From the NCBI GenBank assembly GCA_000830315.1, contig CP010426.1:60670-124669 (forward strand): DNA of 64,000 nucleotides, in the 5' to 3' direction. Origin of the DNA: an archaeon GW2011_AR20 (lineage in GTDB: Archaea; Nanobdellota; Nanobdellia; SCGC-AAA011-G17; GW2011-AR20). This document shows positions 5,834-39,264 of the stretch, in pieces. The translations under genes and the position numbers were made by a program. Position 1 is the first letter of the stretch; each line of letters starts with the position of its first letter. Under the pieces are notes generated by a model. It was not told the DNA's origin, made no database searches, and saw only the letters and a program-made list of their open reading frames with translations.

Positions 5834-6276
5834 AAAAAGGTTTTATCTTTTCATTGGATTCATTTTTTGCAATAATATTATTCACATTAGTTATATTTTT
5901 GATTTATGTATTCTCAATAAATTCCTTCGGATTGAACCAGCAGTATTTTTTTTCTGAAGACTTGCTTACAACGCTTTCAAATGTAAAGATAAGCGAGCTC
6001 GATTTATCAAATTATCCCGACATAAATAGTATGGTATCATCTGGAAAAATAAATTACACAGAAGCAACAATTGTAGAACAGATAGTAAATTTCCAGCTGA
6101 ATGATGATCAGGAATCTTCAAACCTTTTCATTGACGACATATTTATCAAAGTAGCTGATGAGAGTCTAAAAACAGCCATTTTCATAGGAAATGTTAAAAT
6201 TTATGGGGCAGATCCTGAAAACGTAAAGAATTTATTGTCAAGAACAAGGTTGGCGATTGGTAAAAAAAATTCTTAA
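5830..6276 (+). CDS. Small N-terminally anchored protein, possible class-III-signal (pilin-like) protein
   Basis: 148 aa; MKKG followed by hydrophobic FIFSLDSFFAIILFTLVIFLIYVF; start overlaps upstream gene stop. Confidence 0.3.
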   Translation: MKKGFIFSLDSFFAIILFTLVIFLIYVFSINSFGLNQQYFFSEDLLTTLSNVKISELDLSNYPDINSMVSSGKINYTEATIVEQIVNFQLNDDQESSNLFIDDIFIKVADESLKTAIFIGNVKIYGADPENVKNLLSRTRLAIGKKNS

Positions 6277-8522: not shown

Positions 8523-8624
8523 TATATCACCTCTAAATTTTAGTAGGTTTAGTTACTATTTAAATATTATTGTTTGGTTCAAATTACGATTAATTTATAT
8601 ATTTTTAGGTTTAATTAGATATAT

Positions 8625-35444: not shown

Positions 35445-38400
35445 TTAACCACAGGCACCTTCTATAAAAGTGCATTTCGGGCTTGTGCATTTCCAGCAGT
35501 TGACAGATCCTCCAAATCTAATTAAAAGGGAGCTGCAATTGGGACAAACTCTACCAGAGATTCCGCTTTCTTGATTGCTTTCACTAGAAGATGGGATAGA
35601 ATGTTCATTGCCATTACCATTTTTATTATTCATTCCTAGCAAAAATTTTACTTGATCTTCATTCACATTTCCATTACCATTTTTAGATTTCAAAAAATCA
35701 CGAACGTAGTCTTCTTTTAATTCAAATTCTTCATTATTTAACATTCGATAAACCTGCTCAAATTTCTTATGCCTTTTTAATTTATTAATTCTTAATTCAG
35801 ACTTAACTGGAGGCATATCTGCAAGCTCTTTCATCCCCAAATATTCAATACCATAAATCTTGCTCAATAAACTTCTTAATGAGCTACATTGGTTTATGTA
35901 AGGATATCCAGACACAGAGCCATAGATTTCTGCAGATTTTACGCCAAGTCCTTTTTCAACGAATTTTTTTAAATTCATGCCGTGCTGAAGCTGGAATGAA
36001 ACGTCAATGCCTTGTTGTTTTAAATTTTCCTCTAAAAATGTTCCTGCATCGGCCATGTGCAAAAATACCTCGCTTGGCATCAAGGTGTCTTTATACTCTG
36101 TTGTTATAATTATCAGGCTTTTGCCACCAACTTTAACTTTTATTTTATATGAATCGCCTAATTCCGGGGGTTCTTTTGATTGTCCCCAAACTTTTTTCTC
36201 TAAACTATCTGTCAAAAATTCTTCGGTTTCTTTGACATTTAATGGCTGAGATAATTTACTTCCATCTCTATAAGCAGCAACTGCTTTTAATCCAAGTTTC
36301 CATGCCTTGAGATAGAAATTATAAAAGTCTTCTCTAGTAGCTTCATGAGGCATGTTAAATGTTTTTGATATTGCTCCTGATATAAACGGTTGGGAAGCTG
36401 CCATAATCATAAGATGATCGTCTATGCTCAAAGATTTCTTGGCTTTCTTTGGTTTAAGCGCCGTAAGAAATACAGGTAAATGTTCTTCTTTAATATCTGG
36501 TGAACCTTCAATAGTATTATTTTCTGCTATATACTCTAATATTAATTCAATTTTTTTGTCAGAATATCCTAGCATTCTTAAACCAAGTTCAGGTCCTTTC
36601 AAACCCTTTAGTTCAATTCTACCTCCCCCAGAAAGTTTTTTATCTGCGACAAATATGGCATAAGGTTCTCCGCCCAAGGTTTCGTTTTCCATCCACAACC
36701 CTATTGTACCTACCGGGGCGATTACAGTAGCTTGTGCATTTCTATAACCATACTCTTTCCCTAAACCTATTGTTTCATTCCATGTATCAAGGGCAACATC
36801 AAATAAAGAGCTTAATAAGTTTTGGTGGGGTATTTTATTTTTGTTAACCTTAAATAGGTGGTCTCTATGCATGTTCATCACTTTTAACATTGGTTCTTTA
36901 TTATCGTTAAACCTCTCAAATGGTCCCATTTCCTTAGCAATTAAAGAAGATTGCCTATAAACTCTGCCGGTTAATATCGCTGATAAAACAGACGTAAGCG
37001 CCTGTGCTTCTTCACTACCATAAGACAAACCGTAAGACATTATTAATGCTCCAAGATTAGAATAACCTGTGCCAATTGTTCTATGTTTATGAGTCATTTC
37101 GGCTATATTTTTTGTTGGATAGCTTGAATAATCTACAAAAATTTCCTGGGCCGTTGATACAATATCTATGGTATGTGTATAACCCAAAACATCAAAAGAC
37201 CCGTCAGCTTTTCTGAATTTCAATAAATTAAGTGATGCCAAATTACAAGCTGTATCATCTAAGTATAAATATTCTGAACATGGATTTGAACTGTTTTGGT
37301 TACCATCGTTTGGCGTGGTATGCCAAAGGTTTATTGTCGTATCATATTGAAGCCCGGGATCCCCAGAATACCATGACGCATCAGAAATTTGCATTAAGAT
37401 TTCTCGTGCTTTAACTGTTTTTGCAATTTCGCCAGAGGTTATATATCTTAAATCCCAGGTGCTATCTTTTTCAACAGCGTGCATATAATCATCTGGAACC
37501 CTAATTGAGATATTTTCATTTTGAAAAGATAAAATGTCCTGATAAACTTCTCCTTCCCAGTCTGTATTAAAACCCATAACATCTAATGCACGTGCTATTT
37601 CCTCTTGTCTTTTTTTAACATTAATAACTTCCTCGACATCCGGATGACTTACATCAAAGGTGGCCATTTTCGCAGCCCTTCTTGTTTTTCCGCCTGATTT
37701 TATTAATCCAGCCCATACATCATAGCCTTTCATCCAAGAAACTGCTCCAGAAGATTTTCCACCCCCTTTTATTGGTTCGTCTCTAGCACGACGTGTGGAA
37801 AAATTAGAGCCTGTTCCAGAACCATCTTCAAAAATGCTTGTTTCTGTAACTTGATGTCCAACTATTGAGTCCAAATCATCTCCGGTTTTTAAGATAAAAC
37901 AAGCAGAGCATTGCGGCCTTTCATAACTATCGTTCACTGGAATAGCTTCTCCTTTTTTGTCATCCCATGCGAATTTTTTTCCTTCTTTGCCTTTAAAACC
38001 ATAAATATGATTTAAACCAACATTAAACCATACAGGAGAATTAAATGCTGCTCTTTGATCTGTTAAAATAAAAACAAGTTCATCATAAAAAGTCTGGTAA
38101 TCTTCTTGCGATGCAAAATATCCTCTTTTCAGTCCTTCATCTGCAACGGTTTTTGCTACCCTATAAATCACTTGCTTTGCACTTGTCTCTTTGCCAATTT
38201 TAGGAACATCGGCAGATTTAGCATATTTATCAGCCAGAACCATTTCCGCAGGAGTTCCCCAATGTTTTGGCAATTCAAGATACTTGTCAACGACAGGTTT
38301 GTCTGGATCTGCGCGATTCTCTGTTATAATATGCCTGGTTTCCCATTGAAAATAATCAAAGGGGTCCTTTCCTGGTTCTGTATAAAGACGATTAAATTTT

Positions 38401-38483
38401 AAACCCTTATTACCATTTCCAGAATATTTTGTAATTTCTTCTAAATTCGAGACGGGTTCCTTTGTCGCGAGTCCTACAGCCAT
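35445..38483 (-). CDS. nrdJ: Ribonucleotide reductase, probable class II (adenosylcobalamin-dependent) with C-terminal zinc ribbon
   Basis: 1012 aa; active-site-like NPCSEY...LDDTACNLASLNL; C-terminal CPNCSS...CWKCTSPKC; no NrdB-like partner nearby; NrdR gene immediately upstream. Confidence 0.75.
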   Translation of the reverse strand: MAVGLATKEPVSNLEEITKYSGNGNKGLKFNRLYTEPGKDPFDYFQWETRHIITENRADPDKPVVDKYLELPKHWGTPAEMVLADKYAKSADVPKIGKETSAKQVIYRVAKTVADEGLKRGYFASQEDYQTFYDELVFILTDQRAAFNSPVWFNVGLNHIYGFKGKEGKKFAWDDKKGEAIPVNDSYERPQCSACFILKTGDDLDSIVGHQVTETSIFEDGSGTGSNFSTRRARDEPIKGGGKSSGAVSWMKGYDVWAGLIKSGGKTRRAAKMATFDVSHPDVEEVINVKKRQEEIARALDVMGFNTDWEGEVYQDILSFQNENISIRVPDDYMHAVEKDSTWDLRYITSGEIAKTVKAREILMQISDASWYSGDPGLQYDTTINLWHTTPNDGNQNSSNPCSEYLYLDDTACNLASLNLLKFRKADGSFDVLGYTHTIDIVSTAQEIFVDYSSYPTKNIAEMTHKHRTIGTGYSNLGALIMSYGLSYGSEEAQALTSVLSAILTGRVYRQSSLIAKEMGPFERFNDNKEPMLKVMNMHRDHLFKVNKNKIPHQNLLSSLFDVALDTWNETIGLGKEYGYRNAQATVIAPVGTIGLWMENETLGGEPYAIFVADKKLSGGGRIELKGLKGPELGLRMLGYSDKKIELILEYIAENNTIEGSPDIKEEHLPVFLTALKPKKAKKSLSIDDHLMIMAASQPFISGAISKTFNMPHEATREDFYNFYLKAWKLGLKAVAAYRDGSKLSQPLNVKETEEFLTDSLEKKVWGQSKEPPELGDSYKIKVKVGGKSLIIITTEYKDTLMPSEVFLHMADAGTFLEENLKQQGIDVSFQLQHGMNLKKFVEKGLGVKSAEIYGSVSGYPYINQCSSLRSLLSKIYGIEYLGMKELADMPPVKSELRINKLKRHKKFEQVYRMLNNEEFELKEDYVRDFLKSKNGNGNVNEDQVKFLLGMNNKNGNGNEHSIPSSSESNQESGISGRVCPNCSSLLIRFGGSVNCWKCTSPKCTFIEGACG

Positions 38484-38661
38484 TTTTATAAAACCTTCCC
38501 AGAATTAACATAAAAAATTGAGCGTTTTGTCAATATTAAAATCATGATATCACCTTTTTAGTTATCTCTTCCTTCCATTTAGTAAATCTAATTCTTCTCT
38601 TAGAAGCTTATATGCTTCCTGAAGCTCTTTGTAGGCTTCATTTAAGTTTTGTTTTTTCATT

Positions 38662-39117
38662 TTACCTCTTCTTTACCAGATCTTTAAGTTCTTTTTCAAA
38701 GTCTGTAACATCTGCAAAGCTCCTGTAAACAGAAGCAAATCTTATGTAGGCTATTTTGTCCAGTTTTTTTAATTTTGAGACTATTTTCTCCCCAATTACG
38801 CTGCTTGCAACCTCTTTTGACTTAAGCTTGCGCAATTCAGCCTCAACCTTGTTAACTATGTCGTCAACTTGCTCGCAACTTACTGGTCGTTTTTCGCATG
38901 CCTTAAGTATTCCCCGTTTTATTTTTTCAGGATCAAAACTTTCTCTTCTTCCATCTTTCTTGACTATAATCAATCCCAAATCCTCAACTCTTTCGTAAGT
39001 TGTAAAGCGTTTCTTGCACTTGAGGCATTCCCGCCTTCTCCTAGTTACATCAAAGTCTTCTGTTTCTCTCTTATCCACTACCTTGGTCTCTTCATAAAAA
39101 CAAAACGGGCATTTCAT
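38662..39117 (-). CDS. nrdR: NrdR-family transcriptional repressor (Zn ribbon + ATP-cone)
   Basis: 151 aa; MKCPFCFYEETKVVDKRETED...RRRRECLKCKKRFTTYERVE closely matches the NrdR N-terminus; ATP-cone region follows. Confidence 0.8.
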   Translation of the reverse strand: MKCPFCFYEETKVVDKRETEDFDVTRRRRECLKCKKRFTTYERVEDLGLIIVKKDGRRESFDPEKIKRGILKACEKRPVSCEQVDDIVNKVEAELRKLKSKEVASSVIGEKIVSKLKKLDKIAYIRFASVYRSFADVTDFEKELKDLVKKR

Positions 39118-39172
39118 ATGGAATTACAACCTTCTAATGAATACAACCTATTGTGTATCACTTATGCCATCA

Positions 39173-39188
39173 ACACAATATATAGCAC
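39173..39188 (+). promoter_or_regulatory. NrdR-box-like 16-mer (ACACAATATATAGCAC) upstream of nrdR, with partner inverted repeat TATTGTGT at 39149-39156
   Basis: 13 of 16 positions match my recalled NrdR-box consensus acaCwAtATaTwGtgt; lies 56-71 nt upstream of nrdR start. Confidence 0.25.
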
Positions 39189-39204
39189 TTTAAATTATAA
39201 GTAG

Positions 39205-39228
39205 TATTTAAATATTTCTGTGGTAAAA
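39205..39228 (+). repeat. 24-nt intergenic motif TATTTAAATATTTCTGTGGTAAAA (copy A)
   Basis: Near-identical copy at 50725-50748 (1 mismatch), with flanking similarity over about 35 nt. Confidence 0.6.
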
Positions 39229-39264
39229 ATGCTATTTTAGAAAAAATATTTGCGAAAATCAGTT

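Follow-up and report, generated by a model that had tools for sequence, protein, structure and literature searches.

A 24-nt repeat in a DPANN archaeon probably marks two near-consensus core promoters, one facing nrdR and one facing an unannotated micro-ORF

Two nearly identical 24-nt sequences lie between genes in the window, the 64,000-nt stretch of archaeal DNA analysed here. Our analysis suggests that both copies are probably archaeal core promoters, each composed of a BRE and a TATA box on the minus strand, and that they drive two unrelated transcription units. One unit would be an NrdR-controlled ribonucleotide reductase (RNR) operon and the other a micro-ORF, and we consider it likely that closeness to the promoter consensus of their own genome accounts for most of the resemblance between the copies. 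The motif is most likely gene-control sequence of an ordinary, well-known kind, of which these are new instances.

Results

The repeat exceeds chance moderately

Copy 1 (TATTTAAATATTTCTGTGGTAAAA) occupies positions 39205-39228 and copy 2 (TATTTAAATATTTCTATGGTAAAA) positions 50725-50748, both given as plus-strand sequence. They lie on the same strand, differ by a single G/A mismatch and are both intergenic, as the original prediction had described for two unrelated intergenic regions. The extended similarity that it reported is also present: an ungapped extension in the same register (39198-39238 versus 50718-50758) is identical at 33 of 41 positions (80%) and then stops. The core, TATTTAAATA, is palindromic and TATA-like, as claimed, and the motif containing it reads as promoter sequence. 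This core is generic and unspecific to the two motif sites. It occurs four times in the window, and the other two occurrences, at 8557 and 21427, are both upstream of genes, at about -66/-68 of gene 8625 and about -29/-31 of gene 21458, respectively.

A third copy of the 24-mer was absent from the 64-kb window with up to three mismatches allowed. The distinctive half, TTTCTRTGGTAAAA, had no other match in the window with 0 or 1 mismatch; two mismatches gave five matches, none of them sharing the TATA context. Outside coding sequence, no further copy of the element was found in the 64 kb even with 2 mismatches in 14.

A shuffle test for the specific 24-mer gave 0 matches in 100 shuffles. The suited null counts every repeat, direct or inverted, that reaches 24 nt or more with no more than one mismatch at any place in the window, and we generated it with dinucleotide-preserving shuffles over the whole window or inside 300-nt or 100-nt blocks. 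Such a repeat was reached in 13-15% of shuffles (11% in a larger run), and with both copies intergenic in 1.0% (3/300), figures to be read knowing that shuffling breaks the promoter consensus common to both copies. The window holds other near-exact repeats, namely two of 22 nt, two of 21 nt and ten of 20 nt. Among the 171 TATA-anchored promoter pairs in the window, copies 1 and 2 match at 23 of 24 positions, and the remaining 170 pairs match at 14.2 on average (sd 2.1, maximum 19). The repeat is beyond chance, moderately and not overwhelmingly. Because the copy pair is an outlier by both measures (23/24 against a maximum of 19, and about 1% of shuffles), shared consensus alone is insufficient to account for the full identity.

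Promoter layout of the host

The window has a GC content of 32%, and its proteins are archaeal, including pilins with class III signal peptides, aIF5A, Spt5, SecE, TrmB, Cdc6/Orc1, and RtcB together with archease. Its NrdR shares 100% identity with that of archaeon GW2011_AR20. The host is a DPANN archaeon from groundwater, and the window DNA is also present in Rifle-type groundwater metagenomes. Loci L001-L005 are identical to the window, hence uninformative for comparison.

Upstream of 24 genes in the window, a TATA 8-mer (TTTATATA, TTTATAAA or TTTAAATA) begins 26-33 nt, mostly 29-30 nt, before the ATG, which implies mostly leaderless mRNAs. These boxes are preceded by an A/G-rich tract of the cGAAAta type with a T-rich tract beyond it, and the window consensus reads ttttaaaawa-RRnaa-ya-TTTAWATA. 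The TTTAAATA box of the motif is also found 29 nt before the start codons of genes 21458 and 45916, and genes 12006 and 43460 are preceded by cGAAATA-TTTATAAA, which resembles the AGAAATA-TTTAAATA of the motif. The motif therefore illustrates the promoter of an uncultured DPANN archaeon, in which a BRE-like (C/A)GAAA and a TTTAWATA box stand 29-30 nt before mostly leaderless starts. It also carries a warning: long near-identical AT-rich strings in such genomes may simply be two good promoters.

Both copies read as probable minus-strand core promoters

In archaeal promoters, TBP binds the TATA box, while TFB reads the BRE and sets the direction of transcription. On the minus strand the motif reads TTTTACCAY-AGAAATA-TTTAAATA, that is, nine bases, a purine-rich BRE-like tract and a TATA box, and it fits the window consensus everywhere except for the CC at -11/-10. 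The TTTAAATA box, of the TTTAWATA type, reads at both sites on either strand. To compare the two strands, we derived a weight matrix from 17 of the window's leaderless promoters. The minus strand scored higher at site 1 (12.1 against 8.1 on the plus strand), at site 2 (14.5 against 4.0) and at a matching locus in another genome, L008 (12.8 against 1.0); the matrix likewise preferred the nrdR strand in three orthologous nrdR promoters. As the matrix is weak in its BRE region (at most 0.6 bit per position), these scores are supporting and not decisive.

Both sites combine a TATA box of the expected type, an upstream purine BRE, a downstream unit in matching orientation and conservation at orthologous loci. 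With archaeal BRE/TATA core promoters they share the 8-bp TTTAWATA-type TATA box, the upstream purine tract, the orientation towards a gene and the architecture of the 24 window promoters. They differ from this genome's mostly leaderless promoters in that both motif units are predicted to be leadered, by about 66 and 23 nt, and from archaeal core promoters in that the identity between the two continues for nine bases past the BRE. We hypothesize that TBP on the TATA box and TFB on the BRE would impose the minus-strand direction at both copies, and that transcription would start about 29-30 nt past the 5' end of the TATA box.

The motif might instead act as a plus-strand or bidirectional promoter. 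Site 2 would then supply the 118-aa gene with a second start and a leadered transcript, and site 1 would produce an RNA that is antisense or short and non-coding. The core of the TATA box forms a perfect palindrome, the plus-strand score at site 1 is non-negligible (8.1), and genes 50786 and L008:7557 lie 59 and 69 nt past the TATA 5' end on the plus strand; moreover, archaeal TATA boxes can fire both ways (PMC6640164). The plus side, however, has no BRE-like tract (scoring 4.0 at site 2 and 1.0 at L008), and the 118-aa gene is preceded at -29 by a conserved TATA box of its own. Reading along the plus strand from site 1 leads into a convergent gene at its 3' end, where neither an ORF nor an RNA family is present, and the plus-strand downstream sequence differs between the copies. 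As in the BRE-TATA-BRE arrangement of Pyrococcus furiosus (PMC6640164), a symmetric TATA box in AT-rich DNA could recruit TBP either way, but here a recognisable BRE is present on one side only. We regard plus-strand or bidirectional activity as clearly unlikely and keep to the minus-strand core promoters in what follows.

Copy 1 is probably the promoter of nrdR and carries a predicted NrdR operator downstream

Read on the minus strand, copy 1 (39205-39228) consists of TTTTACCAC (39228-39220), the BRE-like AGAAATA (39219-39213) and the TATA box TTTAAATA (39212-39205). The unit downstream of it, also on the minus strand (35445-39117), contains nrdR (38662-39117) and a class II ribonucleotide reductase (35445-38483). 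Pfam supports both genes, with Zn_ribbon_NrdR plus ATP-cone in the nrdR product and Ribonuc_red_lgC plus Ribonuc_red_2_N in the reductase. The placement of one copy upstream of nrdR in the original prediction was right. That copy had, by contrast, been described as opposite in orientation to nrdR, which is an artefact of reading the plus strand. Since the minus strand carries the BRE and TATA box and has the higher matrix score, copy 1 is correctly oriented for nrdR. The gene order of nrdR and the class II RNR is kept in four relatives (L084-L087), and the two genes are presumably co-transcribed.

We compared nrdR loci of relatives at 95, 87, 85 and 79% NrdR identity, whose upstream regions align cleanly. 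The promoter is kept at 87%, 85% and 79% NrdR identity, and the nrdR promoters of L085, L086 and L087 conserve TTTTAYCAYRGAAATnYTTAAATA. On the nrdR strand, the motif region reads TTTTACCACAGAAATATTTAAATA in the window, TTTTATCACGGAAATGCTTAAATA in L085, TTTTATCATAGAAATATTTAAATA in L086 and TTAAATCACGGAAATCTTTAAATA in L087. Mean pairwise identity among these promoters is 94% in the TATA box, 79% in the BRE and 78% in the nine upstream bases, against 45% in the 10-nt spacer that follows and 52% far upstream. The hexamer CTACTT, directly 3' of the TATA box on the minus strand (39199-39204), is 100% identical across the four lineages and absent from copy 2. Upstream of the promoter, the minus-strand block GATTTTCGCAAATATTTTTTCTAAAATAGCAT (39229-39264) is also conserved, with 74% mean pairwise identity versus 52% farther upstream, and it is retained even where the upstream neighbour gene differs.

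The nrdR start codon lies 95 nt past the TATA 5' end, with predicted NrdR boxes between. NrdR binds two 16-bp boxes joined by a linker of 15-16 bp, with key positions C4, A6, A8, T9, T11 and G13 (PMC13584703). In the window, box 1 (GTGCTATATATTGTGT, 39173-39188, minus strand) has 6/6 key positions; box 2 (ACACAATAGGTTGTAT, 39141-39156, minus strand) follows after a 16-bp linker and has 5/6, with the caveat that single 5/6 matches are common in this AT-rich window (714). Our operator prediction is based on the pairing of the boxes, the linker length, the ACAC...GTGT ends and conservation. Box 2 has 6/6 key positions in L085, L086 and L087, again with a 16-bp linker, and the distance from the TATA 5' end to box 1 is exactly 24 nt in all four lineages. 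The predicted operator spans 39141-39188, with nrdR and the class II RNR downstream, and is conserved in three further lineages.

According to the leaderless rule, in which the TATA 5' end lies 29-30 nt before start codons, transcription at site 1 would begin at about 39182-39183. Given the 24-nt spacing between TATA and box 1, the predicted start therefore falls inside box 1. Our model is that NrdR loaded with dATP/ATP would cover the transcription start and the stretch transcribed first, and so block the polymerase, which would amount to NrdR repression at site 1. The 24-nt motif is not itself an NrdR box, since every 16-mer overlapping it has fewer than five of the six key positions, and neither site 2 nor L008 has paired boxes. 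We also considered a third box, upstream of box 1 at helical spacing, and rejected it: CAGAAATATTTAAATA, the 16-mer whose centre lies 32 nt upstream, has neither C4 nor G13.

NrdR is found in 22% of archaeal genomes (PMC13584703), so its presence here is not new. Like the NrdR-repressed nrdRJ promoters of the Streptomyces coelicolor type (PMC13584703), site 1 has the nrdR/class II RNR pair, two 16-bp partially palindromic boxes and a 16-bp linker. Unlike them, it has an archaeal BRE/TATA promoter in place of a sigma-70 promoter, and box 1 lies over the predicted start. What we appear to have, then, is a bacterial-type predicted NrdR operator grafted onto an archaeal promoter, at a fixed spacing over the predicted start, and this outranks the motif itself in interest.

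Copy 2 points towards a conserved micro-ORF

On the minus strand, copy 2 (50725-50748) consists of TTTTACCAT (50748-50740), AGAAATA (50739-50733) and TTTAAATA (50732-50725), and it faces an unannotated, acidic micro-ORF of 24 codons, MYDEDGFIEDPYDDPHQDDGEPLF (50605-50679, minus strand), which is convergent to oapC/arvC. A GAGG ribosome-binding site (50687-50690) stands 8-11 nt before the ATG and is conserved in the two relatives that keep the junction between oapC and the 118-aa gene, L079 and L080. The corresponding peptides are MFEDEFIEDPFDDNNDKDEGEPLF in L079 and MYKIFEDDELIEDPYEDEGEPLF in L080. Across the window and these two relatives, indels are in frame, start and stop are conserved, and third-position changes within conserved blocks are synonymous. 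This pattern indicates that the micro-ORF is probably a real, conserved coding gene. The TATA 5' end precedes its ATG by 53 nt in the window, 45 nt in L079 and 42 nt in L080. Transcription at site 2 would start at about 50702-50703, with a short leader that includes the ribosome-binding site, and copy 2 would thus yield a short leadered mRNA for the acidic 24-codon micro-ORF. A conserved, unannotated acidic micro-protein gene beside the oap/arv-cdc6 cluster is, like the predicted operator, of greater interest than the motif. Farther along, the ORFs of 34-36 codons that follow cdc6 have strong ribosome-binding sites and turned out to be real micro-genes.

A minus-strand BRE/TATA upstream of the micro-ORF is retained as ATAGAAATC-TTTAAATA in L080 and as ATAAATC-TTTAAATA in L079. 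The distinctive TGGTAAAA (TTTTACCA on the minus strand) is lost at site 2 in both, and TTTTACC is found in neither; in the distinctive region L080 has ATTTTTTT, and L079 is missing about 6 nt. The segment between the two site 2 TATA boxes evidently evolves fast, judging from these alignments.

The second of these TATA boxes, TTTATAAA (50757-50764, plus strand), belongs to the 118-aa gene and stands 29 nt ahead of the ATG at 50786. The encoded protein has no Pfam domain and is a member of a DPANN family that is large (1881 matches) and well conserved. We compared loci of this gene at 95, 94, 89, 86, 83 and 77% identity. In all relatives compared, its own TATA box stands about 29 nt before the ATG, the distance being the same in L079-L083. 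The motif is absent, and the neighbours are different, in L081-L083, L088 and L089, the last two representing the 95% relative with a different upstream neighbour. Copy 2 had been noted upstream of gene 50786 as a candidate promoter or operator. It is unlikely to be the promoter of that gene, since copy 2 faces the minus-strand micro-ORF and the gene has its own conserved TATA box at -29; having that box, the 118-aa gene does not need the motif.

The original prediction had also raised the idea of a shared promoter or operator. Its promoter part is supported, as the motif reads as promoter sequence; a shared operator or regulon is not supported, given the loss of the distinctive sequence at site 2 in the two closest relatives, the lack of a third copy in the window and the confinement of paired NrdR boxes to site 1.

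Matches outside the window and the nine upstream bases

The exact 22-mer had two matches in 185,579 species genomes, one in the bacterium Hanamia and one in a Pacearchaeota MAG (L008). The Hanamia match was discarded as a bacterial chance hit. A TATA-relaxed 21-mer had 37 matches in a metagenome collection of 241 million records, of which only L064 and L066 (both site 1), L077 (site 2) and L075 (the L008 locus) are of this lineage. The others come from scattered unrelated organisms, several being inside long ORFs and some resembling bacterial sigma-70 promoters. A 17-mer search of viral contigs was also set aside: it gave 33 unrelated matches, among them L031, which has 25 identical bases but inside a phage ORF (EFKYFYGKIE).

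At L008 the motif lies in a divergent intergenic region and in a non-orthologous promoter, between a minus-strand gene for a 130-aa Zn-ribbon protein with a weak MazE/AbrB-like match and a plus-strand gene for a probable signal peptidase. The L008 match is unlikely by composition alone. By a rough estimate, however, 0.1-1 such matches would be expected by chance among DPANN promoters, the motif being near-consensus, and L008 counts for us as weak evidence. Across 198 kb of DNA from the lineage, the extended form CAYRGAAATnYTTAAA was confined to the four nrdR promoters, site 2 of the window's own genome and L008/L075.

The nine additional identical bases may have arisen by chance, in a spacer that evolves fast, from an upstream element common to both promoters, or through a micro-conversion. 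In the second case, an activator would bind the 9-11 bases that precede the BRE (TTTTAYCAYRG, minus strand), or these bases would modulate promoter strength; we consider this unlikely. The copy pair is a 4-sd outlier among promoter pairs, and a repeat of this length with both copies intergenic appears in about 1% of shuffles. Within the upstream part, A-Y-C-A-Y-R-G is kept in the nrdR promoters of four lineages, at 78% identity against 45% in the neutral spacer, and the restriction of the extended form to nrdR promoters, site 2 and L008 points the same way, as does a third exact 22-mer in a non-orthologous promoter of a different Pacearchaeota genome (L008/L075). In archaea, activators are known to bind immediately upstream of the BRE, as at the GvpE UAS (PMC2241852). 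Against this, neither of the two closest relatives has the element at site 2 (AAAAAATAT stands there in L080, and L079 has a shortened region); the element also shows no dyad symmetry and has no further copy outside coding sequence in the 64 kb. Furthermore, the 185,579 species genomes and 241 million metagenome records together supplied one extra lineage-specific match.

If such an element were shared, it might co-regulate the RNR operon, the micro-ORF beside the oap/cdc6 cluster and the Pacearchaeote gene for the Zn-ribbon/AbrB-like regulator; we give this a low but real probability. With the same reserve, TTTTAYCAYRG can be pictured as the site of a putative DPANN activator that couples dNTP supply (nrdR and class II RNR) to the origin-adjacent acidic micro-protein. 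If true, membership of the activator's regulon would turn over quickly between lineages.

Under a micro-conversion, an ancestral site 2 promoter sharing about 17 bases with the nrdR promoter would have been overwritten over about 24 bases in the AR20 lineage, with no selected function. The differences between the window and L080 do cluster in one patch (ATTTTTTT versus GGTAAAAT, plus a G/T change in the TATA box), which is bounded by the conserved TTATTTAAA...ATTTCTAT and TAGTTA, and the likeness to site 1 ends abruptly on both sides. Direct evidence that these organisms undergo ectopic conversion over so short a stretch is lacking, however; the spacer evolves quickly by indels anyway, as seen in L079, and the L008 copy would be left unexplained. 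We hold this explanation to be quite improbable.

Other readings of the two sites

Site 2 lies in the neighbourhood of oapA-oapB-oapC and cdc6, between oapC and cdc6, and its TTTCTGTGGTAAAA presumably resembles the cores of archaeal origin recognition boxes (ORBs). OapA corresponds to ArvA, the vesiculation GTPase of haloarchaea (PMC10927574). A binding site for Orc1/Cdc6 would nevertheless be very improbable here. A single copy is present, 866 nt from cdc6. Neither an inverted partner nor an array turned up across 47900-53700 or past cdc6 in four relatives, and L079-L083 lack the distinctive half at the orthologous position. A distance of 11.5 kb separates this copy from the one at nrdR, the 2 kb examined at L008 place no cdc6 beside the motif, and the small ORFs that follow cdc6 are genes and not repeats. 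With no array, no partner and no conservation, we rejected the ORB reading.

A small structured element had also been suggested, which we considered as an RNA or part of an RNA gene. One of six folds, that of site 2 on the plus strand, reached z = -2.4. The minimum free energies, however, were weak, between -4.5 and -9.6 kcal/mol, the copies adopt different folds, their flanks are unrelated, and an Rfam search gave no match at E<=1. With folds this weak and dissimilar, we regard a structured RNA as extremely improbable, and this part of the original prediction is not borne out.

Copy 2 on the plus strand reads TATGGTAAAAT, like a bacterial extended -10 promoter (TRTGnTAAAAT), and the metagenome match L053 has TTGACA-17 nt-TATGGTAAAAT. 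The archaeal gene content of the window rules out a promoter of this kind; because the host is an archaeon with TBP/TFB-type promoters, the match is coincidental.

We also rejected the possibility that the copies are attachment-site or mobile-element repeats. The 11.5 kb between them has a housekeeping content of tRNA genes, adenylate kinase, archease, rtcB and oapABC, no integrase was seen there (Pfam on a subset of the genes), and the gene order from adk to oapC is the same in L080 and L082. Within this stretch, rtcB is interrupted by two 32-nt insertions, at 48076-48107 and 48193-48224, which possibly deserve a follow-up of their own.

A predicted bacterial-type operator follows the archaeal promoter of nrdR

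Downstream of the nrdR promoter, which probably serves nrdR and the class II ribonucleotide reductase, we identified a predicted NrdR operator on the minus strand (39141-39188), consisting of two boxes separated by a 16-bp linker, with orthologues in the three relatives' nrdR loci (L085-L087). In the window and in these relatives, an archaeal BRE/TATA promoter is joined to a predicted bacterial-type NrdR operator at an invariant distance of 24 nt. Since the spacing between the TATA element and the operator does not vary, box 1 covers the predicted start site. The predicted nrdR leader is about 66 nt long, in contrast to the otherwise mostly leaderless genome. On the 5' side of the promoter lies a conserved 36-nt block (39229-39264; minus-strand GATTTTCGCAAATATTTTTTCTAAAATAGCAT), with 74% pairwise identity, which survives in relatives carrying a different upstream neighbour gene. 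This block could be a T-run acting as a terminator or insulator, or an additional regulatory site.

Two short insertions interrupt the RNA ligase gene

Comparison with L080, a related locus where rtcB is an intact gene of 485 aa, revealed that the window rtcB (minus strand, about 48442-46915) is broken by two 32-nt insertions, at 48076-48107 and 48193-48224 on the same strand. They spread the gene over three reading frames. Each insertion is single-copy, and their sequences are unrelated to one another. The related locus L079 carries the first with 100% identity, between flanking codons that differ from those of the window; the second is present in the window only. There is a hairpin within each, and a short exon-exon helix can form around it, but a clean canonical bulge-helix-bulge fold is seen for neither. 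They may be mini-introns that interrupt the mRNA of the ligase itself or translational bypass elements, or else the gene may be a pseudogene. The genome also carries a tRNA (44632-44717, plus strand) whose anticodon loop region holds an extra 15 nt and which Rfam detected but ARAGORN overlooked; since this tRNA contains an intron, the ligase encoded by rtcB is presumably needed. About 60 nt upstream of it lies a T-arm-like sequence, ACGCAGGTTCAAATCCTGTC (44557-44589), in which neither Rfam nor ARAGORN called a tRNA.

Small genes in the origin neighbourhood

The 118-aa protein gene (50786-51142, plus strand) is a conserved origin-neighbourhood gene. Its product has no Pfam domain and 1881 homologues, the best 120 of which share 70-95% identity, and it lies near cdc6/orc1 in all six relatives fetched, in most of them also near oapABC. 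Motif copy 2 faces an unannotated acidic micro-ORF of 23-24 codons (50605-50679, minus strand), convergent with the oapC/arvC end, which it slightly overlaps. It has a GAGG ribosome-binding site and a C-terminal GEPLF, and is conserved in L079 and L080 (ATG at 6242 and 5008, respectively). Its acidic tail with a hydrophobic tip is reminiscent of tails that mediate protein interactions, for example the C-terminus of bacterial SSB.

Immediately 3' of cdc6/orc1, two or three plus-strand genes of 34-36 codons form a cluster (53229-53533), and in the window every one of them is preceded by a strong ribosome-binding site (GGAGG/GAGGT). Gene callers assign these genes to no family, and the position of the cluster is kept across relatives (L080 6650-6957, L081 11590-11888, L082 12628-12914 and L083 12491-12711). 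Upstream, an inverted repeat, TTTAAACC-tttg-GGTTTAAA (51549-51568), located 46-65 nt 5' of the cdc6/orc1 start codon, is a candidate regulator site.

The metagenome contig L006 is identical to the window as far as 51148 (L006 position 3363), beyond which it carries different genes (a 284-aa ORF and ribosomal protein S2). Either a rearrangement between strains or a chimeric assembly accounts for this switch, which falls just after the 118-aa gene.
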